Below are positions 1-57,349 of a stretch of 64,000 bases of DNA, piece after piece. This DNA is from Amphiura filiformis. Its lineage: Eukaryota. Within the stretch, counting starts at the first letter, position 1. Every line of letters begins with the position of its first letter. The notes beneath the pieces were generated by a model. That model searched no databases. It was not told the DNA's origin and saw only the letters and a program-made list of their open reading frames with translations. Where the stretch lies: assembly GCF_039555335.1 (NCBI RefSeq), contig NC_092646.1, forward strand, positions 58,074,946 through 58,138,945, read 5' to 3'. Both the position numbers and the translations under genes were made by a program.

Positions 1-604
1 TATTGGCTCTCTCCTTTGTACTGCATTTGAATTGTGGGGCAAATCCTGTGGATGACAAAGACCTCACTGCCAGTTCCGATCAGGGAAACACCTGGTTGTT
101 TGGAAACCCCAACTTGGTCCCTGGGTGTAATGGGAGAGCAGGACGTGCCCGGTGGGTTCAGTTTGTATTTAAAGGTAGGACGTATGACCGTTCCAGGATT
201 TGAAAATGACCCCTATTTCACAGGGAATCGAGGACATTTCCAGCAATTTTACCCCCTATTTTGCGCGAAATCAAGGAAAATTTGCCCCCAAATACCTCCC
301 CTATTTTTATCATTTTGAGGACGCATTTTCATTTCACCCCCTTATCACGAGGAATCAAGGACATTTTTTCGAAATAAATACCCCTATTTTTACCATTTAA
401 GGACGCTTTTGAATTTGTACCCCTATTTCACGGGGAAATGAGGACAATAACGAAAACTGTAGCGGTAAAAAACGGACGAAAGTCCTAGAAATATACCCTA
501 TTTTTCATTTCAAGGACAATTTTGCTCCAAAACACCCCTAATTTGGACAATCATGAACAATTTTGTCCTCGAAAATTCATGAACATTTCTTGAAAAGTAC
601 CCTA

Positions 605-1700
605 ATGGGCTATTCCATTTGAAATCCACCACACACCCCTGTGGAAGATTTTGGAATTCCAACCAAAATCATCAGTTTGAGTAGTCGACATTCCAACTGG
701 AATTGAGGTCGGATTTCATCTGAAATAGTACGGCAAGGGTGTGGAAGATTTTGGAATTCCAACCAAAATCAACAGTTTGAGTCATTCCAGATCTGGAATT
801 GAAGTCGACATTTCAACTGGAATTGAGGTCAAAATGCAAATCTTCCACAGGGTATCCACTGAAAGTTAAATAAAGTTAAATTTCCCACTCAAAAACATCT
901 GAAATAGTACCAAAATCAACAGGTTGAGTCGTCAATATTCCAACTGGAATTGAGGTCAAAGTACAAATCTTCCACAGGGTAATTCAAAAACATGTATATT
1001 TCAACCCAAAAACATGTAAATTTCCAACTGGAATTGAAGATTGACTCTGAAAAGGGTGTGGAAGATTTTGGAAATCCAACCAAAATCATCAATTTGAGTC
1101 TTCCAGATTTTCATTATATGAAAAGTGCATGTTTGGAATTCCAGCATTTCATAGTACCTTAGTATTGGTATAAAATCACTATACCTGATCTTATTATTTG
1201 CTAGTAATCATGGTTTCAAACCATCAAATGCTGGATCTAATGAGATTGCATGCTCCCAGTCCCGCACTCTGTGTATCCGCATGGTAGTTGTGAAATTTGG
1301 AAACCCAGACCTGAAACTTTTCAGTTACTTTTGTTGCTCAAATTCATACATTAAAAAAAAATTTCAGCCCAATTTGAGTTATTTTATCACCAATTTGGCG
1401 CTGTCTTTCAGGTTTTTTTGTTTGAGCATTTAGTTTTGAAAACCTGAGGGGGGGGGGGTCAATCCCATTGTAGCATGTACACCATCCACGATAATCAACT
1501 TTTGAAAAGCACCCTAAATAAGGATTTAACCCTTGCCTAAAACGTTACCATAAACAGGTAACACGCACCTGTTTTTTCACACCCTAAACAGGGATTTTAT
1601 TCCTTGCATCAAATTTCATTTCCGCATATTAGCAATTGCAATTTTGCTACCCTTTTTTCCAAAATTTCATGCTTTTACACCCTAAACACGATCTGCAGCG
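605..1700. repeat. Left arm of giant inverted repeat: MITE-A-like terminus, tandem subrepeats of about 120-150 bp (605-1100), then a unique segment (1440-1700)
   Basis: Terminus gggctattccatttgaaatccacc at 609. The repeated subunit ccaactggaattgaggtc..aaatcttccacagggta occurs at least 4 times. Bases 1440-1700 are the reverse complement of 10720-11070. Confidence 0.6.
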
Positions 1701-1859
1701 TAATTTTAATAATTTGTCATAAAATTTGTATTATATCGTGAATTTCAAAAATTAAAATTATTTGATATCAGAAAGACATATTCTTCAGTATTCAGAATGC
1801 AATTCGATATGTCTGATGTGCTCTCATGTCCCACAAAAAATACTGTAGAAACGCTCATT

Positions 1860-2100
1860 CCAGATCCCTTAAACAAAAGTTTATGGTACAAATTTGTGCG
1901 ACGTGCCTAATATTTGCCATATTAAAGCTATATAAAATTGTGTGAAATATGGTTTGTGCAAAAATAGAATGAATAGGCCGGCATGAAGGCTCTTTTTATG
2001 CTAAAAAGCTACATAGATGTCAACTTGATGCATGGGGGAGGATTGTCAATACCCCCTTATCAAAATTTTAGGAATTATATAAAAGCGAAGCTAAACTATT
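1860..2100. repeat. Direct repeat copy 1 (about 230 bp); the second copy is at 3520-3760
   Basis: agtttatggtacaaatttg...ttataaatgatg recurs with about 85% match at 3520-3760. The two copies flank the palindromic satellite. Confidence 0.7.
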
Positions 2101-2337
2101 ATAAATGATGTCAAGAAGTGGTAAATTTCTTGACTTTTGTTTCACTATGTCTTGAATGAAACTTGAAGGAAATTCTAGACATAATTAAGTAAAGACAAGA
2201 AATTAGCCACTTCTTGACTAACCTGTTATACAAAACTTATTGTTGCTGCATAGTGAAAACAAGCTTCATTTTAATATGAGTAACAGTTTTAAAGAGTTAA
2301 ACTTAGGCCTACACCTAATTATAATGTTCTAATGTTG

Positions 2338-3175
2338 GTTACGGTTCGCTATCTCTAAGGTTCGCTATCTCTAAGGTTCGTTATCACTAATTACGAAAAA
2401 GGTCCGCTATACCTAAGGTTCGATATCACTAATTTTGAAAAAGGTTCGGTATTTCTAAGGTTCGATATCACTAATTTTAAATAAGGTTCGCTATCTCTAA
2501 TTTTAAATAAGGTCCGCTATCACTAATTTATTGAAGGTTCGCTATCTCTAAGGTTAGCTATCACTAATTTAAAATAAGGTCCGCTATTCGCTATAGCGGT
2601 CCTTATTTAAAATTAGAGATAGCGGACCTTATTTGAAATTAGGGATAGCGGACCTTATTTAAAATTAGAGATAGTGGACCTTATTTAAGATTAGTGATAA
2701 CGAACTTTAGGTATAGCGAACCTTAATCGAAATTAGTGATAACGAACCTTAGATATAGCGAACCTTAATAAATTAGGGATAGCTTAACCTTTAACAAAAT
2801 TAGTAATAGCGAACCTTAGGTATAGCGGACCTTTATTGGAATTAGTGATAACTTGAACCTTAGAGATAGCGAACCTTCAATAAATTAGTGATAGCGGACC
2901 TTATTCAAAATTAGTAGCGAACCTTATTTTAAATTAGTGATAGCGAACCTTATTTAAGATTAGTGATATCGAACCTTAGAACTAGCGAACCTTATTCTAA
3001 ATTAGTGATATCGAACCTTAGAAGTAGCGGACCTTTTTTTAGGTATAGCGAACCTTTTTCTCTATTAGAGATAGCGGATTCTGATCTCCATAGACTTTAC
3101 ACGTTAGTGATAGCGAACCTTAGAGATAGCGAACCTTAGAGATAGCGGACCTTAGAGATAGCGGGATGTCACCCT
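2338..3175. repeat. Palindromic minisatellite with units of about 38-40 bp; the unit orientation flips at about 2597
   Basis: The left arm carries aaggttcgctatctctaa-type units. The right arm carries ttagagatagcgaacctt-type units. The symmetry centre is ccgctattcgctatagcggtcc. Confidence 0.85.
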
Positions 3176-4224
3176 AATGTTTTGGCCTAAATTATTTTTT
3201 GGTATAATATTGTAAATATTTAAGTCAACAGATACAATCACTACAGTTTATTGCCAGATTAAAAAAAAATAGTGAAATTGAATAGAGACTATATTAAACA
3301 AAAACAATCCATTTTTTTTATATATATTTTTTTGTTATTTTATTGTGATCTAAAAATATAAAGCTGTGGAAATTTAGTGATTAGGGGGAGAATGTGGGAC
3401 ATGAATGCAGGGCCTTCAAGTCAGTGGCATAGATTTGTATTTGACATGGTGGGGGGGGGGGGGGCTGGGGTTGGAAAACAATTCTTCAAGTGTGAAACTA
3501 AACCTACCCACAGAATAAAGTTATGGTACAAATTTGCACGAAGCACCTAATATTTGCCATATTGAAGCTAAATTGTGTGAAATATGGTTTATACAAAAAT
3601 AGAATAAATAGGCATTAAAGGCTATTTTTAGGCCAAAAAGCCGCATACAGATATCAACATGATGCATGGGGAGGATTGTATAGATCATACCCTCTTATCA
3701 AAATATTGGGGAATTATACATGTACGAAGCTAAAAAATTATAAATGATGAAAATGAATTTGTTTTCACCCTTGACACCAAATCTTTTTGTTGACCCGACG
3801 TGGAGCAATTTTTAAAAATATTTTTTAGTCTGAGGTGGAGGTGTGGAGCTAATTTATTTTCCCCCTCAGATAGCGAGATAATTTATTTTTCTTCAAAGAA
3901 CTTTTCCGAGAAACCACAATATCATAATATTGAAAGTTACACATAATGCTAAAAAAAGGAGGAAGGTAATTAACTGACCAACCTTGGCACAGTTGGAAAA
4001 TTGTTCATGATAAAATTATATAGCAATCCCCAAAATGTTTATATAATCTTGAACATTGGCTTCAAAATGCAACAACTTCAATTGCACTACTTATCCTAGA
4101 ACTGCTTTTCAAATTTGGTCTTTATCAGATTGCTTTCACAAAAATGTGCTATTGGCATGGTTTTCTTATATGCCTACATGTATACATGTATTTATTTATT
4201 TATTCAAATTTCTCTGCCATCACA

Positions 4225-6810
4225 AATAACAACATACGAGGGACTGTCAATATATTCCTGCAACTATTATTTATCTCTGCCAAGTATGACTTTGATGACT
4301 AGTTTGTAGTTCAGTTTGTACCTTTGTCTTTCAAAACAAATGCGTAATTAGCCAAGTCGAATCCTTGATTACGTAATGACATTAGCATAAACACAATAGC
4401 ATATGGACACTGCCTGATATATCATAGTGGTGAAAAATAGTGGAGAAAATAATGAGTCAAATTGAGGTATTGTTACATAATTCGAAATATCTCGAGAATA
4501 AAAGTATGGAATCTGGTGCGGTTTTGCAATTTGGTAGACTGATAACACAGGGTTCATGCTATACTCTATTTAGACCTATACTATTTTTATTAGAGATAGG
4601 GGATCATGTTGAATATCTCCAATTTTGAGTAGGCGTTATCACACATTGTTCTTACATAATAAGAAATAGCAAGATTAAAATGGTACCTGGTTCGATAAGG
4701 TAAAATGGGAATTCGCAAACATTTCTTCCTTTTTAAACCCTTTGTTTTCAAAATGTCATGTTTATGTAATCAAAGCAGCACACCATAGAGAGGCTCTGAA
4801 TTGAAAAAGAAATTTGAATTTCAAATGTGTTTAAAACATGGTCTCAGATTTGAAGCAGGTTTCACTGCCAAAGTGTGTAAAAATTCACCCCAGAGTGAAA
4901 ATAGCTATGTTTAATTTCTAAGGTGTCTTTTCTAGGGTAAAATTGTTTGTAGAACATGATTTTTTTTTTTTTTTGAGTGCAACGTACATCGTTTTGCTAG
5001 TAAATATTGATTTGTGGCCGATTTTGCCCGAAAAACACACTTTATGGGTGACAAAAATTTTCACATGCCAACTTTGTATACTCATAGAGTCTACAATATA
5101 CATAGATATGGCCCTTTAAAATGTTAACATATCACCTGAGGGTACTATTTGATGGATTCAGGCATTTGTTTTGTGATTGACTTAATCATTTGCGCACCAG
5201 AATCATTCAAATATGACATGCCTTGTGACAATTGACATGCCAAAATCAGCTGTTTTCGGCAAAAAAATTGATTTGAAAAATCATAACTCTTGATAGGAAG
5301 GTGCTACAGTGATGGTTGACCTACTAGTCTATGCAGTGATGAATGGGCTTTCATTTGATACCTAACTTTGTTCATTTGAACTAACGAGAAGACTTGCAAA
5401 ATGTAAAAATGTTTCCCCTACCCCTTAAAATTTTGATATGTGTAAAAATTCCCGCCATTTATAAAAATCGGGATTACAAGAAAACTACAAGAGCTATAGG
5501 CTTGAAAAACTAATCAGTTATGCACAGTATAAGTTCCTACATGGGTATAACAATTTTTAACAATTTGTGACATCTGTAAATTACGTAAAATTTGGCATTT
5601 CGAAAAATCGCAACAAAAAAATATGAGGCGACATGTGTAAAAAAACTAATCAGTTATTCCTATGATACAGTACTACAGGTATATAGTATCAAACTTGTGC
5701 TAAAATGCATTTTTTTGAGTTCTAATTTTTTATCAAATTGACTCGCCACCTCATTTTTGAGCAAAATCGGGAACAATTAGTACCTGTAATATTGTGCAAT
5801 CATGTGACCTATATTCAATGTGTGTGCCCCAATCAGATGTAAGACTTGCACTACAACATGATGTGAGCCTTGCAGAGCCTTTATAAGTGTGCCAATAGAG
5901 TTCAAATATGTTGTGATGATGTTGTCACTTAATGGATCTCATATTTTTATTTCCGTCAAAAGCATATGCCTCTACTGTAATGCTCATATCAGGAAAACAA
6001 TGACAGATTGTGCATTTCTGACTTCAGAAATGAATTCTGCACAAAATTTCAGTCTAGAAAACATATTTAAAACAATATTTTTTGAAACTTTATATTTTGC
6101 CATTTTTGGCAGTCAAACCTGCTTCAAATCTGAAACAGTGTCTTTAAAATTTCAGCATTCTGAGACTTAGTATAGCAACTAACTCACAACGTCCAGCAGC
6201 ATTGTATTTAGTCATATTTATAGCACTTTTTTGCCTAAATTTTCCTTTTTCATACATTTTTGGTACTTTTAAGTGTGCCTACCACCAACATGCGCATATT
6301 TATTTCTTTTATTGCAGTAATTTCTATTGTCCTGACTATGATCTTTCATACCAATAATCATAATTGTTTTGGTTTCATTTTGGAGATATTATTTATTCTT
6401 GTGTCTAACTTGTATTGTCGTCTGTCATGATTTTCACACCATTTTTATTTGTCATTAAGGCCTATTTCTGATGAATTTCAAAGACTGCACCTTTCCTCGT
6501 CTGTGTGTTTAATTCTTCTTTCACAATTATGAAGTGAATATACTCAGATTACCTCATACCAAAACAGGGCTTGCAAACTGCTTTGGTACTTACTTATCCT
6601 TCTCCCATGTTCTGTAACTGCAATTCAAATGTCCACCAACGTTGACAGTTGTCTGTGTACATATAGCAATGACTTGATACAAATGAGATTACGTAATTCA
6701 AAAGTACAAACCTGTATTTATCATAAGAAATAGTCATCAAAGTCATGCTTGAGGGGAGATAAATAATAGTTGCGGGAATATATTGACTGCATTGTCCCTC
6801 GTACAAAGAC
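4225..6810. mobile_element. Candidate TIR-bounded element about 2.6 kb long with roughly 85-bp terminal inverted repeats
   Basis: 4235-4312 (catacgagggactgtcaatatattcctgcaactattatttatctc...) is the reverse complement of 6728-6808. There is no recognisable ORF inside. Confidence 0.3.
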
Positions 6811-7699
6811 AATAGTAAACAGCATACCCAAATAGTAAACTAATCTTAAAGGAGTATTTCGTGATCCTAGCATCCTCTTTTTATGACTTTTTTCAGTAGA
6901 TATCAACGAAAAAAGCCTATTCCCAAAATTTCAGTTGATTCTGATTTTGCATTTGCGAGTTATGCATGATTATGTGTATTACACTGCTCCATAGACAATG
7001 CGTTGTAATTTCGTTCTGGTGCACCAGAACGAAATTAAAATTTCACGATATCTTTGCTAAACGAATTAATCTGCAAGATATATTTTGTACATAAACATTA
7101 TGTAGCCAGAGGTATCCAGTAATATAAAAATCTCAACTTTTTTTTGGGAAAAGTGGGGGGATGAGGCTGTGGATCACGAAATGCCCTTTTAAGGGATCCC
7201 GGGAGAATACAGGAAGGGACATGATAAAGTGCAACATATCTTTTTATTTCAACAGAAGGGTTGTCAACATGTCCAGGGTTTTGTGGAAATGAGTCCCAAT
7301 TTATATATTTTTATTTACAATCTTTTCTCAAACGTGCCAATGAATGTGAGAAAGAGAGTGAATAATTGATACAAATTCTCCTTTCAGAAATATGGCTGGC
7401 TACAAAACAAAATGTGACATATTTGTTACAACCTGCAAAACAATTTGAAAATCAAAGGCATTCATTTTATTTTAATGATCTTCATAATGCCTTTGTTTTT
7501 ATGAAATATTTGATTAATTTAGTTAATTCCGCACTTGTCATTGATATTGTGAAAAGATATTCCAATTCCAAAAATATTGCAGCCACAGAAACTCAAAATA
7601 TTTGCTTATGGCGGCATTGATATTCATCAAATATCCACTTGGCGATAACTAATTAATTGAAAAGGCTATTGACATTCATTTTAAGTCTAAAAGAATATC

Positions 7700-8430
7700 A
7701 TATTGAAATGTTTAGAAATACAACTTTTAAAATAAGTAAGTTTTTTTTAAATATTTTTTTTTGTCATTGAACATATTACTTTCGATGAAAAAGTCATTAA
7801 ACATTGTGCAGAAATAAGTCAAGCAAGTGAATTGCCCATTTTTTCTCAGTTGACAATATTTACAGGCTTATGACAAAAAACAAAATACAATACAAATTAG
7901 TGAAATTGATGTATGCATTAAAATGAACGACCTATTCAATTGATTGACAAATATTACAATAAAATATAAAATAAAATGACATGGTATTGCACACATAAGC
8001 CTAACAAACTTCAGTGACAAACTTATTAAAATCAAAATGTTTGCATTAAAAATTCATTTTCTTGCATTACTAATTATTTTAAATTTGTTTAAAATTTAAT
8101 GAATATTTTTTAGCATTGAAAATATTACTTTTGATGAAAAAGTCAACAAACATTGGGCAGAAATAAGTCATGCAAGTGAATTGCCCATACTCCCTCAGTT
8201 GACAATATTTACAGGCTTGATATATTAAAACAAATATAATACAAATGATTGAAATTAATGAATGAATTAAAATGAGCGACCAATTCGATTGATTGACACA
8301 TCTACTATGCATTCATAGGCAAATGTAGAATGCCAGAAGACAATAAAATGACATGGTATTGCACACATAAGCCTAACAAACTTCAGTGACAATCTTATTA
8401 AAATCAAAATGTTTGCAATAAAAATTAATT
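7700..8430. repeat. Tandem duplication of a unit of about 370 bp (7700-8060 and 8080-8430)
   Basis: Long shared strings such as gaaaaagtca..aaacattg.gcagaaataagtca.gcaagtgaattgccca and aaatgacatggtattgcacacataagcctaacaaacttcagtgaca. Confidence 0.75.
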
Positions 8431-10557
8431 TTCTGAAATTTTCTGAATTTGTCAAATAAGGAACTTTTTCACGATAAATTAAAATTTGTCATTTGCGCAT
8501 GCATGACAAATTTTTCAACTAAGACAGTATGTATGGCCATATTTTGTTTGTTAAATAATGAATTAATTATACTTCATGTGCTTGGTGTACAAATAAAGTA
8601 AACTAACAAATTTATATTAGTCAAAACAAGAAATTTAACAGAGAATGTAATTAAATATTAAAATGTAAATTTTAGACATTTTATAAATGCTTGATATGGC
8701 TAAACATGGATAAAATTACCTATAGGGCAAAATAATTATTTATTGTTGTTGGGTTTTATTAAGTGGGAGCATGATAACAGAACAAGTTTTTGAAGAATCA
8801 TTTTCTAAACGAGACATTTGTCTTCCAAATAAGCAAATGAATAAAGAGTAAACTGACGAATCAAGCGGAAAACATTACAAGAGCATATTTATAACTGTTA
8901 GTATACATTTTAAATGAGAATCAAAATAAACCTTGAATGAATAAATTAACAATGTGAACTGCAAAAGTTTATTCTTAATTTTATATATCATTTTCTTTCT
9001 TTTGAAATGAGTGTTCACATATGCAATATCAACGGTACATTTTGGTACTGCGGGTTTGCAATTATGGTTGATTTCACACAAATGCAGAGATGTTATTTGT
9101 TTGTTCAGCATCATAGCTATTAAATGTAATCAAAATATCAAATAAAAAATCAAATAATTAGGCCTAAATATTTTGCAATTCTCAATCATTTTGGATGCAG
9201 GCAGGAAACAGTAAACTCAAAATCAAGAAGGGCCGAGGTTTTTCCCTTCAAAACAGACCAGGGGAAAATATTAGTTCCTATGATATGACAAAGTGGAAGG
9301 TGACAGTCATAGTAGGATACTGTCATGCTCTAATAGACTATAATGAAATATGCGGGGGCATGGTTGATGGTTCAAATAGCCTGTATAAACAGCTAGGGGG
9401 GTACTCAGTACAAAATACCATTTACCCATCTAATATATCAATGACTTTTTGGAAAAGGTAATTGGTATAAAATTTTCTTGTCCATCTGCTTTGATAACGA
9501 TCAAAGCTGAAAAAAAAATCCCCTCATTTCAATATCTCCAATATCTTGAAATAATTAATTAAGAATGAGTTTTTTAATTCTCATCTTTCTGATATCAGAA
9601 AATGAGCATGTAGTGTGGAATTTTTAAGTGTTTATTTTTTCATATGTGGGCAAGTTCTTTGACATTTGAATCTGAGACATTGGCACAATACATATAGGAA
9701 TCAGCCTAGAAATCAATTCAAAATTATATTGTAGCCAAATTTAATTTGTCCATCAAAGTATGTTGTCCAACCAACTTGGAATTTCACCTTTAGACACCAA
9801 AATGACACCTTAAAATTAAAATGCCCTGGGTATAAAAATACAGGCAATTTTGTTTGAAAATGTTTACGATTTTGAACTCTAGAAAGCCGAGAATAGAAAT
9901 AAGCAACCAGGGCAATTATAATAATTAAATTATATTGTTATCTGTATGAAAATATCAATACAAAAAGTGAAGTGGTAATCAGTTTTGAGGTTATTTAGAA
10001 GACGCATTATACTTCTGTAAAAAAAGACGACTCGTTATACTTGAACTTCAGTAAAAAGGGTTAATTCACAATTTTTTCACATGTCAATATAAAACTTGAA
10101 TTTGTTATGTGAAAATCTGTAACCAGGTAGAAAAAAACATGAAGCAAGGCCTATCCTGAGAAAAGCCCAGACTAAAGATCATAATCAAATTATGCTCCAT
10201 ACACTGTCCACTGTGGTCCACAGCTTCTGTGCACAAACTTGTAGTGGTTTTACAAAACTATTCCACTGGGCCAAGGACACCCATCCTAAAAATAGGTTTT
10301 AGAATGTTAATGGTTTAATTTATGTGGCATTATATTTTTGCAATTATCTGTTCTTAAAACAAAAACTTCACAATGCAGACAAAATAGATTTCTTGTCACT
10401 TGAGGTCTATTAAAGTTGACTATAAAGTCTATCTGGTATTTGAATGAATGAATGTATAGCAAAATAAAAATCTGAAGAAACTGTCAAAAATTCTATCTAT
10501 AAAAATTAAGTAAATTTGGACAACAAAAATAAAATTCGGGCAAAAATTCTCATATGG

Positions 10558-10625
10558 GGCTGTGCAATAATTATGAGCCAATGGGTTGGGGGGATTTCCC
10601 CATGATGGTCCAACTCAAAATGTGT
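10558..10625. mobile_element. MITE family B solo terminus (ggctgtgcaataattatgagcc...)
   Basis: Matches the termini of the full copies at 31148-31448 and 40600-41042. Confidence 0.5.
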
Positions 10626-10719
10626 CAGTTATTGTTGGAAATTTCAGCATGATAATATTTTAAGCAAACATGTTTTTTGCATCCAACAGTTTTTATTATT
10701 TCTAAATTTCCACCATACT

Positions 10720-11512
10720 CAGAAAACAAGCAACTCCCATTGTGGCCTGTACACCATCCGCGATAATGAAAAGCGTAAAATGGGTAGTTTTTAGGTAGGT
10801 AAGCATGATTCACAAGCGTAGCTTAGCGTTTATGGTGTCAAAAACATGAAATATTGGAAAAAGGGTAGCAAAATTGCAATTGCTAATACTGCGGAAATGA
10901 AATTTAGGGTATGAAATTTGATGCAAGGAATAAAATCCCTGTTTAGGGTGTAAAAACACCTGTTTAGGATATTGTTTTAGCCAAGGGTTAAATCCTTGTT
11001 TAGGGTGCTTTTCAAAAGTTGATTATCGTGAATTGGTGTACAGGCCACAATGGGAGTGACCCCCGGGAATTTCTACCCTGTTTTAGACCTTCTCTGCTGG
11101 AATTCTAACAAAATGTAAATGTTTCCAACTGGAATTGAGGTAGAAGTGCAAATCTTCCACAGGGTATCCGACTGAAAGTTAAATTTTCCACCGATAATGT
11201 TTCCAACTGGAATTGAAGTCGACATGAAAATCTTCCACAGGGTATCTGACTGGAATGAAGTTTTTAGTTAGAATTCCACACAAAACATGTAAATGTTTCC
11301 AACTGGAATTGAGGTCAAAATGCAAATCTTCCACAGGGTATCCAGCTGGAATTGCGTTAAATTTGTAAATCTTCTACATGATTCAGCTGGAATTACAATG
11401 AACGTGGGACTATTTCCAACGGATTGTACATTTGGCCCAACTGGAATTTAGGTAGCATTGTAAATCTTCCACAGGGGGGGTGTGGATTTCAAATGGAATA
11501 GCCCAATTGGAA
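10720..11512. repeat. Right arm of giant inverted repeat; mirror image of 605-1700
   Basis: 10720-11070 is the reverse complement of 1440-1700. 11090-11470 repeats the ccaactggaattgaggt..cttccacagggta subunits. It ends in the inverted terminus ggatttcaaatggaatagccc at 11480-11505. Confidence 0.6.
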
Positions 11513-11725
11513 CCATCATGCGTACACATTGTCAGTGAAGACTGAACCCACCGGTAGGACGTATTTCAACACTGAATGATCTACCCAGGTTAGATAAGAT
11601 GTTAAAAAAGAACTAAAGGCTAAACAATCTGAAAGCTGCAAGCTAGCAATCACCGTCCATGGGAGAATTTGATTGACATGATTGTCGATGCAAACTAGTT
11701 TTTTCTGTCTGTGATTATACCCTAC

Positions 11726-11912
11726 CTGTTCCAAATACAACAATATTGAAGACCCAATCATCAGGCAAGTGATGCAAGGCTAACAAAGCAATCTTCTTGG
11801 CTTCTCTTAAACTCTCCCCTCTCATTGAATTGGATAGGTCCAACATGAAAATGACCTCTGACCTCCCTTCAGTGTTTGCTTCAAATTCTGGGTAGAAGGT
11901 TAACATGCATGC
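11726..11912 (-). CDS. PARP4: PARP4-like exon: start of the vWA domain (ACMLTFYPEFEANTEGRSEVIFMLDLSNSMRGESLREAKKIALLALHHLPDDWVFNIVVFGTG)
   Basis: Acceptor ttctcttctttacag|GCATGC and donor ACAG|gtaggg. The MIDAS motif D-L-S-N-S-M is present. The reading frame is continuous with the preceding exon. Confidence 0.85.
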
Positions 11913-12132
11913 CTGTAAAGAAGAGAAATGTTTATAAATGAAGTCCAACAATTTTGAACACAATTATTATCCATCACCTTTAATAGGAGGATCTACTTGT
12001 GTACGAGGCTAGCCTTATTATGAAAAAGAAATTGTTGCTTGCTAACATCACCAAACTTTACATGAAATCTAGCGGCTGACAGCAACTGATGAGCTCCCCA
12101 CTGGCTCTGCAAGTTATCTTTGCTTTGCTTAC

Positions 12133-12355
12133 CTGACTATCTTTCTTAGATGGGTGGCGCTCTACCCACATACGAGGTACATGAATCTCTGCCAATCCAA
12201 TCTGAAGCTGAAAGCCATCGTCCAACCTGGTGCAACCATCAGCCAATGCTACTGTAGCTTTGCTTGCTGTGCGCTTGATTCTGATTGGATGCGTGGGTGA
12301 CTCCAGAGTTCGAATGTCATAGGGCATCTCTATAGCAACCTCCACTGACAGATTG
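12133..12355 (-). CDS. PARP4: PARP4-like exon: C-terminal half of the VIT domain (..NLSVEVAIEMPYDIRTLESPTHPIRIKR...GFQLQIGLAEIHVPRMWVERHPSKKDSQ)
   Basis: Acceptor ttttcctacag and donor CAG|gtaagc. It begins in phase 2, consistent with the preceding exon ending in GG. Confidence 0.8.
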
Positions 12356-12494
12356 CTGTAGGAAAAGGAGAAGTCAAAAAAGAAAAAAATGAGTCTTTCA
12401 TCGTAGTAGACCGGGAGTTTGGGATGTGGAAGAGCATCTGGTGTTGCCTCTGGTAGGTGTTTCTAATGGCTTAGCTGGGTTTGAGGAATGCCGA

Positions 12495-12610
12495 TCAGCC
12501 CATCTTGACTGTCCTCAGGTCGTTCTGAGTAACCTCTGACATGGCTGCATCATTCTTCCAAGGAGCTGCAGTCCCAGGTAGACCAAACACTAGATTACAT
12601 CTTTTAAGGT
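12495..12610 (-). pseudogene. Intronic degenerate duplicate of the 3' half of the VIT exon at 13738-13943 (..LVFGLPGTAAPWKNDAAMSEVTQNDLRTVKMG*)
   Basis: About 32 residues are a paralogous copy of IVFGLPGSVAPWKKDTALSEVTQTDLKTVKIDKEMKG. It ends in a stop codon and has no GT donor. Confidence 0.55.
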
Positions 12611-12814
12611 CAGTTACCCCAAGACAGAGAAACAAAATAAAACACATCCAAAGTGTTATATTCCTTGCCACACTACTCAGCCATTGAAAACGGTCGAGAT
12701 TTATTTTTGTATATTCATCAAAAACATGCATACACAATTCACAATTTAATTAATATGAATAGCAAAGGCTAAAGGCTTCAATTCAGCAAAAACAATCATA
12801 AAATTATTCGGCAT

Positions 12815-13140
12815 TTATGCAAAAGCAAAAGTCTGGATGCGAGGTACTCCACGATATCGGAAAGCGAGATACTTTAAGCAAAAGCTGAAAAGCTGGATGT
12901 GAAATACCCCTTATATCTGAAAGCGAGATACTTTAAGCAAAAGCTGAAAAGCTGGATGTGAAATACCCCTATATCTGAAAGCGAGATACTTTAAGCAAAA
13001 ATGAAAAGCTGGAATGTGACTTACTCCAAGATATCGAAAAGCAAGGTACTTTAAGCAAAAGCTGAAAAGCTGGATGTGAGTTACACCATATAGCTGAAAG
13101 AGAGATACTTTGGAAGCAAATGAGAAAATTATAGCTGAAG
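12815..13140. repeat. Tandem repeat with a unit of about 60 bp, about 5 copies
   Basis: gcaaaagctgaaaagctggatgtgaaatacccc..tatctgaaagcgagatactttaa is repeated head to tail. Confidence 0.85.
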
Positions 13141-13737
13141 CCTTTAGCATATTTTAATTATAATATTTAATATTTTTTGCTGTTGACTGGAGCCCGCGAG
13201 AGATTCCCGAGCTTCCTTGCGGAAAAGTTCCTTAAGAAAATTTCAAAATCAAAAGAATTATTACATTTTTCTTTGACATTGTACATATAAAGCCATTATT
13301 TTATATAATTAATATCAAATTGCACTCCCACCCACAACCCACCTCTAATCTGGACCACTTTGCAACTCGTGCGAACCCTGCAAAGTGAGAAAGAGCAAAA
13401 ACCAGAATTTTTGGGGATGGTGGGTGGGTAAATAAAAATTATTTACGACCGTCCTCAATGATGGCTGATTGTGTTGTGATTTGGCTATGGCTCCCAACGC
13501 AACCGGATAAACAACCAAGCCTGCCCTGATTGGCCAAACCCGACAAGAACACAATGGATGCTTTATGCAAATGAAACATGTGATGACCCGCGGTCATTTA
13601 ACATGTCCTTTCACGAACGCCCCTGGATGCAGGCATGGAAGCACCCATTTCTCTGCGGGGGCAAATTTTGATTCTTCATGATTGATCACATTCAGAATCT
13701 TTATTATTTATCATATGTACATTACATCTAAGCTTAC

Positions 13738-13943
13738 CCTTTCATTTCTTTGTCTATCTTGACTGTCTTCAGGTCTGTTTGAGTAACCTCTGATAGCGCT
13801 GTATCTTTCTTCCAAGGAGCAACACTGCCTGGTAGACCAAATACAATTGTATCTCCATCTACAGATAACTCTGCCATGTAAACTATCTTGATCACTACAG
13901 TTGTCATTGGGGGAAGGTTTCCTACACTCACTGTGAACACATC
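13738..13943 (-). CDS. PARP4: PARP4-like exon: central VIT domain (DVFTVSVGNLPPMTTVVIKIVYMAELSVDGDTIVFGLPGSVAPWKKDTALSEVTQTDLKTVKIDKEMK)
   Basis: Acceptor ttgcag|GATGTG and donor GG|gtaagc. The phases match both neighbouring exons. Confidence 0.85.
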
Positions 13944-13949
13944 CTGCAA

Positions 13950-14013
13950 GGAGATACAATACAGTTTTCTTTAGGGGAAGGTTACTTACACTCACTGTGT
14001 ACACATCCTGCAT
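13950..14013. repeat. Local duplicate of about 65 bp of the acceptor and first codons of the exon at 13738-13943
   Basis: ggaaggttacttacactcactgtgtacacatcctgcatag closely matches ggaaggtttcctacactcactgtgaacacatcctgcaag. Confidence 0.6.
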
Positions 14014-15027: not shown

Positions 15028-15400
15028 TTGTGTCAAGTGCTTTCCAAAGTAAACCAAAATATACCCCCATGGGCTATACCAATTAAAATCCACACTACCC
15101 CTACAAGATTTTGGAATATCTTACACAGGGGGTTGGAAATATCTTCCATAGGGGGAGTACAAATTTCAAATGTTATTAGTGGCATTAACCTCTGTTTGAA
15201 CCTCACCTTCCCTCTGTGCAAGATTCATGTTCAATCTTTCTCGGAGGGTATATGAAATTCAAATGGAGCTGCTTAATGTATTTATTCCATTTGAAAGTCA
15301 TACTCCCCCTGTGGGAGATACATGTATTTCCAAAATCTTCCACAGGGGTAATGTGGATTTTAAATGGACGAGCCCAATTTGTGCTCCATACGTATATCAA
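15028..15400. repeat. Cluster of truncated MITE-A fragments in both orientations
   Basis: Several ccatacacccc..gggagtgtagatttcaaatgg motifs. The six-frame track translates these as the recurring (H)TP..ED and FKWN peptides. Confidence 0.6.
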
Positions 15401-17756: not shown

Positions 17757-17942
17757 GCCTACTCCATTTGAAATCTATACACCCCTTTTGAAGACATACC
17801 TTAATCTTCAACACAGGGAGTCTGAATTTCCATTGGGCTTACGCGAATGGGTGACTCCATTTGAAATCTATCCTCCCTGTGTGGGAGATTACTGTCACGT
17901 CTTCCACAGAGGGTGTATGGATTTCAACTTGAATAGCCCAAT
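17757..17942. mobile_element. MITE family A copy; abuts the 135-bp tandem array
   Basis: ggcctactccatttgaaatctatacaccc ... gggtgtatggatttcaacttgaatagccca. Confidence 0.7.
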
Positions 17943-17949
17943 AACTCAC

Positions 17950-18485
17950 CTCTGCAGCCAAGTCCAGTAACTTAGCCCTGACATGGACAGCTTTCAGTGG
18001 TACTGGTTGGTCACTATTAGACAATAGACCAGCTTGGACTTTGGACAGTGGATCAGTAATGGACTGCACATCATTGATACTTACCTCTGCAGCCAAGTCC
18101 AGTAATTTAGCCCTGACATGGACAGCTTTCAGTGGTACTGGTTGGTCACTATTAGACAATAGACCAGCTTGGACTTTGGACAGTGGGTCAGTAATGGACT
18201 GCACATCATTGATACTTACCTCTGCAGCCAAGTCCAGTAACTTAGCCCTGACATGGACAGCTTTCAGTGGTACTGGTTGGTCACTATTAGACAATAGACC
18301 AGCTTGGACTTTGGACAGTGGATCAGTAATGGACTGCACATCATTGATACTTACCTCTGCAGCCAAGTCCAGTAATTTAGCCCTGACATGGACAGCTTTC
18401 AGTGGCACTGGTTGATCACTATTAGACAATAGACCAGCTTGGACTTTGGACAGTGGGTCAGTAATGGACTGCACATCATTCAGAT
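17950..18485 (-). repeat. PARP4: In-frame tandem array: 135-bp unit x about 4.7, made of the PARP4-like linker exon plus its GTAAGT donor; A and B variants alternate
   Basis: Period is 135 bp exactly (ctttcagtgg at 17991, 18126, 18261). The minus-strand ORF is open across all copies and reads (QSITDPLSKVQAGLLSNSDQPVPLKAVHVRAKLLDLAAEVSINDV)n. Each copy contains GCAGAG|GTAAGT; the last copy has GCAGAG|GTGAGT. Confidence 0.85.
18355..18485 (-). CDS. PARP4: PARP4-like linker exon (minimal, single-copy form): D-LNDVQSITDPLSKVQAGLLSNSDQPVPLKAVHVRAKLLDLAAE, ending at the first GTAAGT donor
   Basis: Acceptor aaatttcag|AT. Phase 1 pairs with the exon at 22558-22729, which ends in phase 1. The donor is in phase 0 and pairs with the acceptor at 15675. 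Donors at 18220, 18085 and 17950 are equally in-frame alternatives. Confidence 0.6.
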
Positions 18486-18540
18486 CTGAAATTTAATGTG
18501 GTTGAGATGTGTTACATTATTGTATGACTTTGACTGGAAA

Positions 18541-20655: not shown

Positions 20656-21289
20656 CAAATAAAGCTCAATTAATTTCACTCTATAGATAAAATTCCCCCA
20701 TGCACCTTTTATTGCATACCATGTAATTCATCATCATTTTACCCAATTACTTGATTCATGTCTTGATTACAGAATGCATTTGAATTGTATTTTGAAATCC
20801 TGCCTGTTGCCAACATGAATGCCATTCACTTGTCTCGTTTTGTCTTGTCTTCACATCAAAGTCTTGTCTTTCTCTGTGTCCTTGTCTTTGCACTTATACT
20901 ATATTTAATATTATTATTAAGGGGTGGGGTATGAACGTTTGGACAGTATTTATTGTGGGACATTCATAACCTCATTAATATACGCTGTGAAGCCTGTGAC
21001 TCACAATGACTTGGACGGCGCAACAATGACTTCTCTTGCTGCAGCAGTATAAGTTTCAGCGTTATGGCAGCGCACACGCCTACGCGATGCCGTCGCGCTT
21101 CTGTGATTGGTAGCTCTTGTTGTCGGCGCGAATGTTATATTCGCCTGGTTGATTTTTTTGTAGGGTATGTTACAACAATGATTAAAACTGGTTATATTTA
21201 ACAGCGTTACGTTTTATGGCATAAAATAACATAAAATGCCATTTTGATTTGTTCAAAGTATTAGATACGACGGTAATGAATGACAATAA

Positions 21290-21412: not shown

Positions 21413-22557
21413 ATAGATGGTGCACAGTTATTATTGTCTAATTAGAGCACATCAGACATATCGAATTGCATTCTGAAAGCGAAGAATGTCCTTCTGATAT
21501 CAAATAATTTTGATTTTTTGAAATTACGCAATGTAATACACATTTTATGGCAAATCATTAAAAATTGATATTTTTGATATTTAACAGTACTCGAATTAAA
21601 ATTTATAAATCTGATGATTTATACTTAAAGTGTATGTAGGTGGGATGAAAAGCTGACGATCCATTGAAAATTTTGACCTTACTGATTGAATTTATGGATT
21701 TTGTCCCAAAACACCAAAAAAAATTAGGTCTTTTTGGGAAAAAAATCCATATCTTCAATATAAAAGGTCAAAAGCATGCACAGAACAAGATTCAAATACC
21801 ACGCCGAATTGTTGTAATTGGTTGACGGCAGGTCCCGTACGCAGGGGGGGTGCGGGGGGTGCGACCGCACCTCCCCAAATTTGCAAAAGTATACAAAAAG
21901 TCCCAAAATTTAAATCAGTTTTTTTACGGATTTTTGATCAAAAAAGTTCCAAATTTGGGGGAAAAGTCCACTTTTCACAAAATCGCCCCCCCCCTTTGGG
22001 ATAAAGTCCACTTAAAAAAAAACAGAACCCCCCAAAAAGAACCCCGCGTACGGCCATGGTTGACGGACAGCTGGGATCACTGAGTTAATACACTAAGAAT
22101 AAATATGCCAATTAGAAACACTGTCTGCATTTTATGAACTGAATTATATTTTTCATTTTTATAAAATGTTTTTGGTGAGGAGTATAATTAATTTACTATT
22201 CATCCATTCACTATCCAAAATCACAATACCTACAAATCTGTATAATGAGACCGTCCAAAATAGTGGTACCCAACTTCTACCGGATTATTTTTTAAGTGTT
22301 GAGAAAAACCTTCCAATTTCAATAGAATTTCTGGTAAACTCTCACTCAATGCTTTGGAAACACAAAAATCCCGTTAGGTCTCAGCGAATGTTAACACTTT
22401 TCTTTCATGACTTTCTTTGAAAGTGGATATTTTTTCAAATAAGTAACAAAAACTGGGTGTCTAAGTTAATTGGACAGACAATAGGTTATTTTTTGTTAAG
22501 AAATATGTTATTAATTCTCATGATATCAAATGGTACCCCTTTTCAAAAGTGTCTTAC

Positions 22558-36379: not shown

Positions 36380-36760
36380 TGGAAACACTGTATGAGGTAT
36401 GATCGTTTTCGCCCACCTGGATATTTACCCACAATGCACTATTACACTCTGTTCTGAATGATCAATATCACTTACTGGGCTATTCTAGTTGAAATCCATA
36501 CACCCGCTATGGAAGACATGACCTTAATCTCCCACACAGGGAGTGTAGATATCAAATGGAGTCACTCCTTCAGGAAACTCCATTTGAAATTTAAACTCCC
36601 TATGTGTGAGATTAAGATCATGTCTTCCATAGGGGGTGTATGGATTTCAACTGGAATAGCCCAACAAGTGATATTGATCATTCAGAACAGAGTGTAATAG
36701 TGCATTGTGGGTAAACATCCAGGTGGGCAAAAAAGATCATACCTCATACAGTGTTTCTGC
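36380..36760. repeat. Extended palindrome: a MITE-A copy (36476-36662) flanked by roughly 95-bp inverted repeats
   Basis: gaaacactgtatgaggtatgatcgttttcgcccacctggatatttacccacaatgcactattacactctgttctgaatgatcaatatcactt (36385-36476) is the reverse complement of 36665-36758. Confidence 0.75.
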
Positions 36761-41150: not shown

Positions 41151-44100
41151 ATAAGGGGTACTACACCCCTGCCCAATTTTGTGCCTATTTTTGCATTTTG
41201 CTCAAAAAATTATAGCGCATTGGGGACAAGTAAGATATGTAGTAGGCAAGGACTACAACCACTGCACTGGAAATTTTATTTCAGCACAGACAACAGTTGT
41301 GGAGTTACAGACAAAAATGAGGGAAGGGAGATCAAATCACTTTATTATCAAAATACATATAAAACCATTGAACAATAAAGGAAAACAATAAGCCCAGGAC
41401 AGATCGTATAAAAGATCATGCAGGGCGGACAAATACAGTATAAAAGCATGTAAGCACAAGAAATAGCAATATTGAAAGACATAAAAAGATATAAGATTTC
41501 ATTATTTATCACATTATGCACTGAGCATAGTAAATGACAAAAGAGGCAATGATGGACAATTTGGAAACCTTGTCGCGAATTCCTTGAAACAAATCGGGAG
41601 TGAACTAAAGAAGTGAATGATTTGAGCCTGTCAGCATTATCTTGCGAAATGAAACCTCTCGAGCCAACTTCAACACCTAATGTAAGTAACCTCGAAATCA
41701 TTTTCCTGAATATCAGAAATAAGAGGCGATACTTATTGAGCTTCAACTGATGGGCCCTGTCAATACCATGCTCAAAGGAACGGTCAGTTCCACAATCAAT
41801 AGTTTCCTTCGATTCTTCCAAAGAATTACCAGATCAGGTTTGAGGTTGGTTGGAGAACATTCAGTAGGAATGGTAGTGACACCGGCAAAACCAGCTTCAC
41901 CTGGAATGTCATGAAAATGGTTGCATCCGAATCTTTGAGGCCAGCTCGTATGCGACAGATATAAAATATTTCAGAACACTATTATGACGGTAAGTATAAC
42001 GACCTTGGTCCAGAAAGACTTTACAGTTATTTAGAACATGATTGAGAGTCTCTTTGTTGCAGCAATGTAAACATTTGTTGGAAACAGATTTACCCCACCT
42101 AGCAAGGTTGACCCTTGTGTTCAGAGAGTCGCCAAGGGCGTTAACCAAAAATTTGCTGACTCTCGAAGGAAGATTGAAAATGATGCTACGCCAGAGAGTG
42201 CAGGAAGATTCTTTGGAAAGGAGATCATAAAAACGTCCTTGCACTGCAAGAGAACGAACATGATTATGCCAAAATTCAGAAATTGAATGGGTCAACGTTT
42301 TCTTGGCGGAATTCTTCTGAATGGTAACCTTGTTTGACTTTTCCCCAACTGCTTAAAATATTTCTTCACTCCTGACAGTCACTGATTTCTTCCGAGTCCA
42401 TTTTCGCTCTCTATCCAATTTGGAATCAATGCAGTGGCTAACAAGCTCATCACTTTTATTTCTAATTGAAATATGTGTCATCACATGACTCTCAAGATAG
42501 AGATCAGAAATGGATCGAATATTGAGCCCATTAGGCATGAAAATAAAGGCAAGGGTGCCGGGTTTTGGAATACCAAACCATTTTTTCAAATGACGATTGC
42601 ACATAGCGCCCAGCGCTTGGAGATGAGAAAAGCAGAGATCATTGACTGTCAAATGGTAGCGTAAAGAGGGAAGAAAGTATCTTGTGTAAACTTGAATCTT
42701 ATATTCATTTGAATAACAGAAGTTTCGATATTTTCCAGGGCGGAAGAAATTTTGTCCTTGAGGTATTCAAAATATCCGAGGAATTGTTGCGAAAAGTAAT
42801 GAGGGAACCAAGAAATTTGTGAGAATCATTTTCAACGGTTGGGACCTCAACGCCTGCAATGTCGAAAAGAATGGAAGTGGGGAGCCTGCAGAAAGGGATA
42901 ACGATCTGCATTTGGAAGGCTTTAATTTGAGACCCATTGAAGAACAATGGTCGGTGATGCGGTTAATGAAACGTTGATGGGTTTTCTTATGTCTTGTGAT
43001 CAGGCAAAAATCATCAGCAAATGGGGTGGTGATGAATTTGGTACCACTGAGATCGTAACCAAAATTGGAATTGGCGATGAGGTCTTGAACAATAGGATCA
43101 AAGCAGAAGATAAAAATTAACCGTGAAAGAGTGTCTCCCTAGAAAATACCTTTCTTAAACTGAAATTGATTCAAGTCCAGTCCTTTGAGGAAACTCTACC
43201 AGTGAGAGATGAATAAAGATTGTTAATGTACAGTTGAATACAGGGAGGGAAATTTAATCTCTTCAGAGTGTGATAGATAAGCTCATGTTGAACACTACCG
43301 AAGGCGTCTTCTAAGTCAAACCAGGTAGCATGAACAGTCTTAGAGTTAGCTTTAGCATGACTTAAAATTTCATGGACAATTGTATTATGATCAGTACAAC
43401 CACTAATGCCTTTCAAGAAAGCTTTTTGAAACAAGTATAATGTCAATAAGATTGTTAGAAATAACAAATTTCTCAAATCTTTCGGCAAGCACTTGGTGAT
43501 AGAGTTTTCCAATAACGCTGACAAGAGCAATCATGCGGAAATTAGATGGATTGTCAGTATCACCTTTTTTGTGGATCAGCACAATTTTACTTGATGTCCA
43601 TGATGATGGTGGAGATGGAAAATGTAACAGTTTGCTAAAAAGAGTTGCCATAAAATGATGCGTACAGGGAAGTTTCTTAATCATCCCATACATTAGGCCG
43701 TCCGGACCGGGCAGATTTAGAACTTTTTTCATAACAATTTTTCTTATGTCGGATGGTCTGACTGGGTCTAAATTGAAATTGAATAAAGTCTCTGGCTCGG
43801 TAACAGGTGGAAACCAATTCATTTCGTCATAGTTGAGTGGCGTTAGACAATTCATAGCGATCTGTATAGAACTGGTCAGCTGATTCTTTAGAAAATGATG
43901 GCCAGTTACTATCACCATAGAGTGACCCGTTGACTAGTCTTTTAGCAAAGTCCCAGAAGTTTGATTTAAAATGTCTCTCCTCCCGGGCACAAGTTCTTTC
44001 AGAATCCTTAGCTTTTTCTTGTTTACGAAGAGTATCATATGTGTGAAGGGCGTCATAAAATAGTTTTTATCATCAGCAGTGGCATTTTTTCTGAAAGCCT

Positions 44101-56200: not shown

Positions 56201-57349
56201 TTCTTTCTAATGTGTAGTCCTACATGGAGAGATGTTATTTAATATGAGGTGGGGGTTTCTTTTTACTGTGTAGTCCTACAAGAATAGAGGTACAAAGTAG
56301 TCCGACATGGCAAATTTGTTTTACTGTGTACATCTAACAGTGAGGAAGGGAGGTCTTTTTCCACGGTCAATGTAATCCTTTTAGTTACTGTGCATGCATT
56401 TGTCGGGGGACGTATATCTATTGGCCACAGCGTGCAAAGATTTCAGTAAAAGTTCTTAACAATCAAATCCAAACTCTATACATTATACCACAGATCCTGG
56501 ACCGCGAAAAACGGGTAATCTGCTATTGTTTCTAACAAATTTACTTGCAAACGGTGATTATTTGTGATATTATCAAGCATGTACAACTTATCACGATTTG
56601 ATGATAATATGCATGATATGCTGAAATATTCATCAAATATGGGCATATGGTTCACAAAAATATCTGATAGTTTGCATTTTCATAAAATACAAAAGCAATT
56701 GTCCCATTATCTTAGTCAAATCTCGTTAATAGGTTTATGGACATCTGTCTCATTAGGCTTGTATTTGCGTGTGCTGATCGTACTCGTGATACTAATGGTG
56801 ACAGAAACACATCAACTTGATTGATCGACAAAATATTCTTATCTTGTTTTTAAAAAAGTCAAGCGAATAATAATTTAATTATACTGATAATGATATTTTG
56901 GAAAAAGAAGGGTACAATTACTGTTGCACTTTTCTCGACCCTATTCCTTTTTCGACTGTTTTGGGTTGGTCCTTTTATTATTCAAAATGCAATTCGATAT
57001 GTCTGATGTGCTCTCAGGCCCCACTAAATATGCGTGAAAACGTCGCTATCGAAGCCCTTAAGTAATCAAATATACGCCACTTACACGTCTATTTGAAAAT
57101 GTCAATTACTTATCAAATTCAAAAGTAAATAAACAGCTCAAAAAGAAACGTATAATTTTTTCACATGTCATATCTTAAAATCTTGTCCATCAAAATGAAC
57201 TAAAATTACATACAGGATTACTTCAATACTCTACTCTAAACACATGTCACTAACTAAGCAGTTGTCCAACCGACACAACCACAAAATGCACTGACATGGA
57301 ACAGCTTCCTGAACCACATTAACAGTCCAATAATTGGCACCCAGCACAA

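Follow-up and report, generated by a model that had tools for sequence, protein, structure and literature searches.

What is the inverted-repeat structure of about 11 kb that occupies the beginning of a 64,000-nucleotide stretch of Amphiura filiformis DNA (contig NC_092646.1, positions 58,074,946 to 58,138,945 of the forward strand; hereafter the window, in whose own numbering all positions are given), and how did it come to lie beside the exons of a PARP4-like gene? The initial annotation had described two mirror-image arms of about 1 kb, each composed of a terminus of the MITE-A type (MITE, miniature inverted-repeat transposable element), an array of subrepeats and a unique segment, and had offered a giant foldback-type transposon, two MITE-derived satellites captured in inverted orientation and a palindromic rearrangement as possible origins. 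The structure is real but was over-described. In our view 607-11504 is, by a modest balance of probability, one inserted non-autonomous cut-and-paste DNA transposon with terminal inverted repeats (TIRs), a member of the MITE-A family that has since received nested insertions. We treat it as one inserted unit because its ends share a TIR, AAT stands on both sides, the left and right ends (L-type and R-type) are complementary, and the flanks belong to one host element that is itself bounded by inverted repeats.

Positions 607-629 on the + strand and 11482-11504 on the - strand are identical at 23 of 23 positions in inverted orientation, with 0 such matches expected by chance, and the inverted identity runs on to about 45 bp with one indel, as GGGCTATTCCATTTGAAATCCAC[CACACA/AC]CCCCTGTGGAAGATTT. 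The two termini point towards one another, with 10.9 kb of AT-rich DNA between them, and together delimit a span of 10,898 bp. Both carry the family terminus GGGCTATTCCAGTTGAAATCCA(T/C)AC.CCCC, which is present in about 27 copies in the 64 kb, often as hairpin MITEs of 88-305 bp (for example at 15071-15375, 36477-36662 and 17849-17939), while several family termini in the window have no partner. Among the roughly 27 termini these two are each other's nearest relatives, and their sub-family has no further member in the window except the divergent 305-bp copy at 15071-15375.

Inward of the termini the arms are not mirror images. The subrepeats named in the initial annotation, those ending in cttccacagggta, have the same, direct orientation in both arms: exact AAATCTTCCACAGGGTA units lie on the + strand in 5 of 5 cases (838 and 965 on the left; 11150, 11228 and 11324 on the right), CCAACTGGAATTGAGGT motifs in 8 of 8, four per arm, and by BLAST 811-1053 matches 11123-11476 directly, + strand to + strand, at 69-92%. 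Only three left-arm units (640, 740 and 1057; TGTGGAAGATTTTGGAATTCCAACC) are mirrored relative to the right arm, and these are a different type of unit. Inverted similarity between the arms is limited to three parts, namely the TIR of about 45 bp, a weak stretch of 159 bp (68%) and a 235-250-bp segment of a second family, MITE-B (82%); inverted partners exist for about 36% of the left arm and direct ones for about 22%, with neither for the remainder. Nor are the subrepeats uniform units of about 120-150 bp: they are spaced at 100-127 bp on the left and irregularly at 44-96 bp on the right, with a higher-order period of about 174 bp. The arrays of both types are built of degenerate MITE-derived units bearing the repeated motif CCCTGTGGAAGATTT, and of the exact copies of this motif (TGTGGAAGATTT; CCCTGTGGAAGATTT) in the 64 kb, 9 of 10 fall in the arms. 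The L-type end reads GGGCTATTCCATTTGAAATCCAC...CTGTGGAAGATTTTGGAATTCCAACC, the R-type end ...CCAACTGGAATTGAGGT...AAATCTTCCACAGGG...GTGGATTTCAAATGGAATAGCCC. In the left arm a block of R-type subrepeats lies ahead of the last L-type unit (Table 1); the stretch 1046-1155 aligns to the last unit and array end of contig L036, described below, with a score of 35, against 11.7 +/- 2.5 (maximum 25) in controls. We had considered that a single R-type array was split by a 10-kb insertion, and dropped this idea, as the R-type block is followed, further inward, by the last L-type unit and by the array boundary.

The segment of about 260-340 bp that had been taken as unique is, on the right, a 324-bp element with TIRs of its own, MITE-B, and on the left a truncated copy of the same element. 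Their inverted match (1454-1687 versus 11064-10828, 82% over 251 bp) makes up the second inverted block, and so the general description of an inverted-repeat structure of about 11 kb stands, with its inverted termini and this block, whereas compound 1-kb arms inverted as wholes do not. The distance from terminus to MITE-B is 847 bp on the left and 440 bp on the right. The two copies share 8 bp (GGGGGTCA) outside the TIR, at 1454-1463 and 11055-11064; the other end of the complete copy, at 10735, lacks GGGGGTCA. Simple nesting leaves the shared GGGGGTCA unaccounted for. It could hint at copying from arm to arm or at duplication of a segment; alternatively, MITE-B itself is asymmetric.

Are such ends peculiar to this locus? 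A single scan of Joint Genome Institute (JGI) metagenome contigs returned 114 contigs with the terminus, from projects JAAUXV01 and JAAUYA01, which we assign to a different species because their similarity to the window is only transposon-level (72-94%). In these contigs the terminus of 22-30 nt heads many unrelated internal sequences, including head-to-tail arrays of itself. Contigs L036 and L075 are of the L-type: they start like the left end of the window element (84% over about 97 bp, with 603-697 being 84% identical to both) and continue into four or five left-type units of about 100 bp. Past the array they have more than 1.5 kb of internal DNA in common, and no second terminus appears in the 1.1-2.1 kb or more over which the copies can be followed inward, so multi-kilobase elements of the L-type exist. 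Four further contigs (L064, L087, L030 and L107) are of the R-type, starting like the right end and continuing into units of the right-arm type; 11122-11511, TIR plus array, is 73% identical to L064 over 401 bp. When the first 60 bp are compared, each window terminus resembles the ends of its own type in the other species more closely than it does the opposite terminus of the window element, the left one being closest to L075 and L036 (scores of 52 and 50, versus 37 to the right end), which argues that the two types of end are old, conserved and distinct. The window contains exactly one end of each type, and the two face inward. Shared structure is thus found elsewhere, TIR-plus-array ends of both types being present in another species.

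The same contigs yielded several observations of their own. In L021 (1-450), and also in L016, L024, L067, L093 and L111, the MITE-A terminus is arranged in head-to-tail arrays whose periods lie between 42 and about 75 bp, which exemplifies a MITE terminus becoming a short satellite. In L064 an (ATGA)n microsatellite (1745-1825) directly follows the R-type array and recalls the layout of bivalve tandem-repeat MITEs. At 1-100 of L036 an L-type element lies within the L-type array of another copy, which represents self-nesting or possibly an assembly chimera. A 23-nt match in the phage-like contig L116 was discarded as chance. Scanning viral contigs with the sub-family terminus gave no match, and neither did a scan of bacterial and archaeal genomes; in the literature we found no paper on the terminus sequence or on the whole-genome shotgun prefixes JAAUXV and JAAUYA.

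The DNA outside the termini is related across the insertion. A short outer inverted repeat, whose right arm begins at the first base past AAT, has a local alignment score of 23, against 10.9 +/- 1.7 for random 60-mers from the window and with 0 of 3000 controls reaching 23; by BLAST the pair is 75% identical over 48 bp and includes a perfect 14-mer, CCGGTGGGTTCAGT. Between the left outer arm and the insertion lie degenerate tandem units of about 85 bp, and the right flank continues this unit in phase, CCCTAAT being followed by TTGGACAATCATG in one case and by TGGAACCATCATG in the other (p of about 0.004-0.007). An unrestricted local alignment of the two flanks was not significant, whereas the phase-specific and inverted tests were. 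Because the flanks form an inverted pair and the phase is kept, both appear to derive from a single small element, bounded by inverted repeats, that was interrupted between 606 and 11508. This relation, together with the convergent and complementary ends, makes two unrelated insertions unlikely.

A target-site duplication (TSD) had been proposed as something to look for immediately outside the ends, and AAT does abut both 607 and 11504. We regard it as a putative duplication that is supportive but weak, as an AAT/AAT match would arise by chance with a probability of about 0.12. The relation between the flanks carries more weight. Across the family, 8 of 34 candidate pairs have identical 3-bp flanks, compared with 3.9 +/- 1.7 under random pairing (p = 0.02).

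Several points weigh against a single insertion of this kind. ATT or AAT precedes 47% of all family termini, so the AAT match is weak evidence, and with about one family terminus per 2.5 kb, convergent termini 11 kb apart are unremarkable by themselves. The R-type units within the left arm need an extra event, conversion or unequal exchange, and the 8 bp shared by the MITE-B copies are likewise awkward. For the presumed host element (142-606 together with 11508-11562) the data contain no further copy, and the whole architecture is represented by one copy, the contigs of the other species (1-3 kb) being too short to link an L end with an R end. A rival account is that of fortuitous neighbours, that is, two unrelated partial MITE-A insertions that lost their inner termini, plus two unrelated MITE-B insertions: partnerless family termini are indeed present among the roughly 27 in the window, both components are of the dispersed-repeat type, and the arrays are direct rather than mirrored. 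We nevertheless consider this the least probable of the three rival accounts and unlikely in itself, given that the two termini are the sole members of their sub-family in the window bar 15071-15375, are convergent and complementary and have AAT in common, and that the outer flanks are significantly related; by a rough estimate the joint chance is below 1e-3. The earlier suggestion of two MITE-derived satellites captured in inverted orientation is right in that the arms are degenerate MITE-family arrays; these arrays are direct, however, and the related flanks argue against independent captures.

Slightly less improbable, though still unlikely, are two other accounts. In an old, decayed inverted segmental duplication, a palindromic rearrangement including the MITE-A end, MITE-B and some flank, the arms should align at roughly uniform identity and have mirrored flanks. 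We find instead discrete, sharp-edged blocks, with more than 60% of the arms lacking an inverted partner even with 7-nt seeds, AAT flanks that are direct and not mirrored, and termini that are each nearer to copies in another species than to one another. There is a collinear nested series of inverted matches (149/11554, 601/11510, 1454/11064, 4235/6803 and 4830/6148, all at 68-84%), the inverted similarity reaches beyond the transposon termini and the MITE-B copies share flanking bases, all as a palindrome would have it; nested complete TIR elements, however, yield the same collinear pattern automatically, and the 4234-6804 pair has TA flanks of its own. A true giant foldback-type transposon, in which a 10.9-kb unit transposes with long compound inverted arms (TIR plus array plus MITE-B) and exists in other such copies, strikes us as equally unlikely. 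The ends do look like those of one inserted unit, and the long inverted arm is not there: the inverted portion amounts to the strong 45 bp, the MITE-B block and a stretch of 159 bp at 68%, the subrepeats named earlier run in direct orientation and MITE-B stands at unequal distances from the two termini. At least one interior element has its own TSD, so that part of the length is secondary, and a second copy was not seen. What speaks for a giant foldback element is the coarse order from terminus to subrepeat array to MITE-B, which is mirrored in both arms, the 8 bp flanking MITE-B as if copied from arm to arm, the L-type elements of at least 2 kb in another species, and termini that are common to short MITEs and adjoined by tandem repeats, as in Tetris and DAIBAM (PMC4079207).

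How might a single non-autonomous element have reached its present form? A transposase encoded elsewhere would bind the shared termini of about 30-45 bp, and probably also the reiterated subterminal motifs CCCTGTGGAAGATTT; the unit would then be excised and reinserted with a 3-bp duplication, here AAT. The landing site would have been the small inverted-repeat-bounded element, which lies in the PARP4-like gene, between the first VWA exon and the next. The subterminal arrays may be read as degenerate multimers of MITE-like units. Later enlargement of the interior would have come from a TA-flanked TIR element of 2.6 kb, the MITE-B copies and a foldback minisatellite. The anatomy, the relations within the family and between the flanks, and the lack of ORFs or protein domains are observed; the single insertion, the TSD and the action of a transposase in trans are inferred. 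If there was indeed a single insertion, an empty allele reading ...GAAAAGTACCCTAATTGGAACCATCATGCGTAC... is predicted.

The interior, which had been called AT-rich and devoid of open reading frames (ORFs), is just that. Its content of guanine plus cytosine is 29-33%, compared with 36-42% elsewhere, the longest stop-free stretch is 102 aa, and interior open segments of at least 40 aa, joined with X, gave no match in Pfam, with no transposase or reverse-transcriptase remnants. No tRNA gene was found in 1-13000 and no Rfam family matched that region above its gathering score, so an origin of the terminus from a tRNA or a short interspersed nuclear element was set aside. The palindromic minisatellite between direct repeats, the tandem duplication (given earlier as 370 bp) and the second candidate TIR element were all recovered, with the coordinates listed in Table 1. 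The minisatellite measures 820 bp and resembles a perfect foldback, its core running along the + strand as far as 2567 and along the - strand beginning at 2613. Single-stranded, the minisatellite forms a hairpin with an energy of -248 kcal/mol (z = -42); it has no copies elsewhere in the window and could have originated as a foldback element inside a duplicated repeat. The nested TIR element has diverged inverted arms of about 0.7 kb (4234-4954 and 6035-6804; total length about 2.6 kb), with inverted matches at 4235-4326/6803-6699, 4368-4410/6697-6655 and 4830-4954/6148-6035, and its termini, CGAGGGAC...GTCCCTCG, are preceded and followed by TA.

The structure had been placed where the 3' exons of the PARP4-like gene would be expected, and this was broadly right: the intron that contains it is the one after the first VWA exon. 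The - strand of the window encodes a PARP4 architecture in Pfam terms, with a weak BRCT domain, a PARP catalytic domain (E = 2e-22), a VIT domain (E = 3e-36) and the beginning of a VWA domain; among named proteins, the VIT and VWA exons are closest to one of the bivalve Solemya velum (62% identity). Proteins identical to the ORFs of the VWA and VIT exons were looked up and not found. These exons recur at 85-90% nucleotide identity in L001, an ENA contig of a related species; its introns are not alignable, and it contains neither MITE-A nor MITE-B. In L001 about 470 bp separate the first VWA exon from the next, whereas in the window the next VWA exon was not detected anywhere in 1-11700, so the structure sits either in an intron that exceeds 11.7 kb or in a gene that is broken. 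Insertion and nesting of transposons, enlarging this intron from the roughly 0.5 kb of a relative to more than 11.7 kb, would explain why no PARP4-like 3' exons are found nearby.

Other features of the gene region deserve mention. At 17842-18492 (-) a 135-bp unit encoding the start of the VIT domain (DVQSITDPLSKVQAGLLSNSDQPVPLKAVHVRAKLLDLAAEV) is present in four tandem copies in one open frame; a corresponding array in L001 (4307-4657, 76% identity) marks it as a conserved exon-like tandem repeat of the PARP4-like gene. Two versions of one VIT exon segment, at 12498-12749 and 13737-13970 (-), are 83% identical at the nucleotide level over 89 bp, read …VFGLPG(T/S)(A/V)APWK(N/K)D…SEVTQ(N/T)DL(R/K)TVK… and represent a duplicated exon or pseudo-exon; part of the DNA that separates them is a 59-bp tandem repeat (12814-13128). 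In the intron between the BRCT-region exons, ORFs at 41350-43933 (-) resemble the reverse transcriptase of a retrotransposon without long terminal repeats (non-LTR; …FADDFCLITRH…), and L001 too has an RVT_1 gene, upstream of its VIT exons. At the very start of the window, 3-200 (+) is an exon-like open frame (…NPVDDKDLTASSDQGNTWLF…WVQFVFKG) that ends at a splice-donor-like site, gtagga, and partly coincides with the left outer arm (142-195); Pfam yielded no match for it, and positions 6-88 are 74% identical to 2120-2206 of L002, a contig of another species.

Table 1. Features of the transposon-derived structure and its surroundings (window coordinates; strand left empty where none applies)
Feature	Position	Strand	Basis and remarks
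Outer inverted repeat, left arm	142-195	+	Pairs with 11508-11562
Degenerate tandem units of about 85 bp, left of the insertion	199-604	+	Self-similarity, 199-368 versus 408-564
AAT, left copy of putative 3-bp TSD	604-606		Sequence reading
Left TIR, MITE-A family, L-type end	607-651	+	23/23 identity to 11482-11504
L-type subterminal repeats (TGTGGAAGATTTTGGAATTCCAACC...), mirrored relative to right-arm units	637-793	+	Match arrays of L036 and L075
R-type subrepeats (...CCAACTGGAATTGAGGTCAAAATGCAAATCTTCCACAGGGTA) inside the left arm, in right-arm orientation	793-1041	+	Match L064 and L087 on the strand used by the right arm
Last L-type unit and inner boundary of the left arm	1046-1155	+	Alignment to last unit and array end of L036
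Truncated MITE-B, inverted relative to the right copy	1454-1700	+	TIR match at 1464; about 95 bp, one TIR among them, are missing
Fragments of other dispersed repeats	1704-1883		Copies at 21424-21563, 56974-57061 and 20906-20963
Direct repeat of about 240 bp, left copy	1876-2122	+	79% over 256 bp to 3517-3762; 84% column identity in alignment A1
Palindromic (foldback) minisatellite, 16-bp core GGTTCGCTATCTCTAA, periods 16, 26 and 42 bp	2343-3163		27 core copies
Direct repeat of about 240 bp, right copy	3517-3762	+	Pairs with 1876-2122
TIR element nested in the larger structure, TA on both sides, Tc1/mariner-like, non-coding	4234-6804		Inverted matches and termini
Tandem duplication of about 340-360 bp	7746-8457	+	7746-8084 versus 8095-8457, 80% over 363 bp
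Complete MITE-B, 324 bp, 24-bp TIRs (ACTCCCATTGTGGCCTGTACACCA)	10735-11058		Exact TIR matches at 10736 (+) and 11054 (-)
R-type subterminal array, five units	11100-11478	+	Motif strands, self-similarity
Right TIR, MITE-A family, R-type end	11460-11504	-	Nearest L064, L087 and L107 (score 45.5)
AAT, right copy of putative 3-bp TSD	11505-11507		Sequence reading
Outer inverted repeat, right arm	11508-11562	-	Begins at the first base past AAT
First VWA exon of the BRCT-PARP-VIT-VWA (PARP4-like) gene	11721-11928	-	tblastn, and BLAST to L001; Pfam VWA_3 and VWA_2

Taken as a whole, the structure is nothing out of the ordinary in an invertebrate genome rich in repeats, and it opens no new question. 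Its value lies mainly in annotation; it also documents a MITE family whose termini are common to very different internal sequences, tandem arrays among them, and adds an example to the known continuum from transposon to satellite in bivalve-like genomes. A more ambitious proposal, to which we give little credence, is that the terminus GGGCTATTCCAGTTGAAATCCA and a 3-bp AWT flank duplication mark an undescribed lineage of DNA transposons, in molluscs or other lophotrochozoans, whose non-autonomous members range from 90-bp hairpins through satellite-like arrays to elements of more than 10 kb, which have asymmetric L and R arms and are still mobile as units. Were that so, the present copy would count as a mobilisable, non-coding cargo element of unusual size, residing in a gene.

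How does the element compare with known systems? The MITEs of the PIF/Harbinger (Tourist-like) type have a 3-bp duplication, a TIR starting GGGC..., many short derivatives of one terminus and AT-rich targets; their canonical target is TWA, and the autonomous copy encodes a DDE transposase and a Myb-like protein. The window element resembles them in its 3-bp flank signal (the excess of matching flanks across the family), in the GGGC... start of its TIR, in its short derivatives and in its AT-rich sites. It differs in that ATT and AAT dominate before the family termini, TAA and TTA making up only about 9%, and no transposase or Myb-like ORF accompanies these termini in the interior of the structure. 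A 3-bp duplication would point to PIF/Harbinger-like chemistry, with a flank sequence other than TWA. As for MITEs in the usual sense, TIRs, a putative flank duplication, the lack of coding capacity and a high copy number (that of the terminus family) are all found here, in an element whose 10,898 bp far exceed the customary size of under about 0.8 kb.

Among bivalve tandem-repeat MITEs, DTC84 of Donax trunculus is described as having a central array of core repeats, only short inverted repeats and an AA target duplication (PMC3879986). The window element resembles DTC84 and the pearl-like elements in its short core-repeat arrays inside a non-autonomous element, between flanking sequences (PMC3879986), and the best named protein match of the window, in Solemya velum, is likewise from a bivalve; the microsatellite after the array has its like only in the related copy L064, not at the window arrays. 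By layout rather than by sequence, it is unlike DTC84 in its TIRs of 30-45 bp, its two subterminal arrays, its 3-bp AAT/ATT flank and its span of 10.9 kb, and the features of DTC84 and pearl-like elements, a central array with a microsatellite, short inverted repeats and an AA duplication, are not those of our element.

Foldback elements are characterized by long terminal inverted repeats, of hundreds of base pairs to kilobases, by tandem subrepeats in or near the TIRs and by a variable non-coding middle. Long inverted arms were tested for here and are not present, and we therefore do not file the element as a foldback; the tandem subrepeats are present (637-793 and 1046-1155 of the L-type; 793-1041 and 11100-11478 of the R-type), as is the non-coding middle, with ORFs of at most 102 aa and no Pfam match. 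Tetris, of the Drosophila virilis group, is a non-coding foldback element whose outer TIR is common to the MITE DAIBAM and whose TIRs contain tandem repeats; it has long true inverted arms of up to 1.7 kb and TSDs of 8-10 bp (PMC4079207). The window element differs from it in an inverted part of about 45 bp (159 bp weakly), in arms of different unit types, in arrays that are partly direct and in its 3-bp flank duplication; there is no sequence relation, and the host phylum is different. Like Tetris and DAIBAM, on the other hand, it is non-autonomous, shares its outermost TIR with a short MITE family and has tandem repeats just inside its termini, and like Tetris it combines a variable non-coding middle with few structurally complete copies and a link between transposon and satellite array. 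By analogy of layout, the Tetris/DAIBAM pair would be its closest counterpart, and apart from its arms the element may be called foldback-like.

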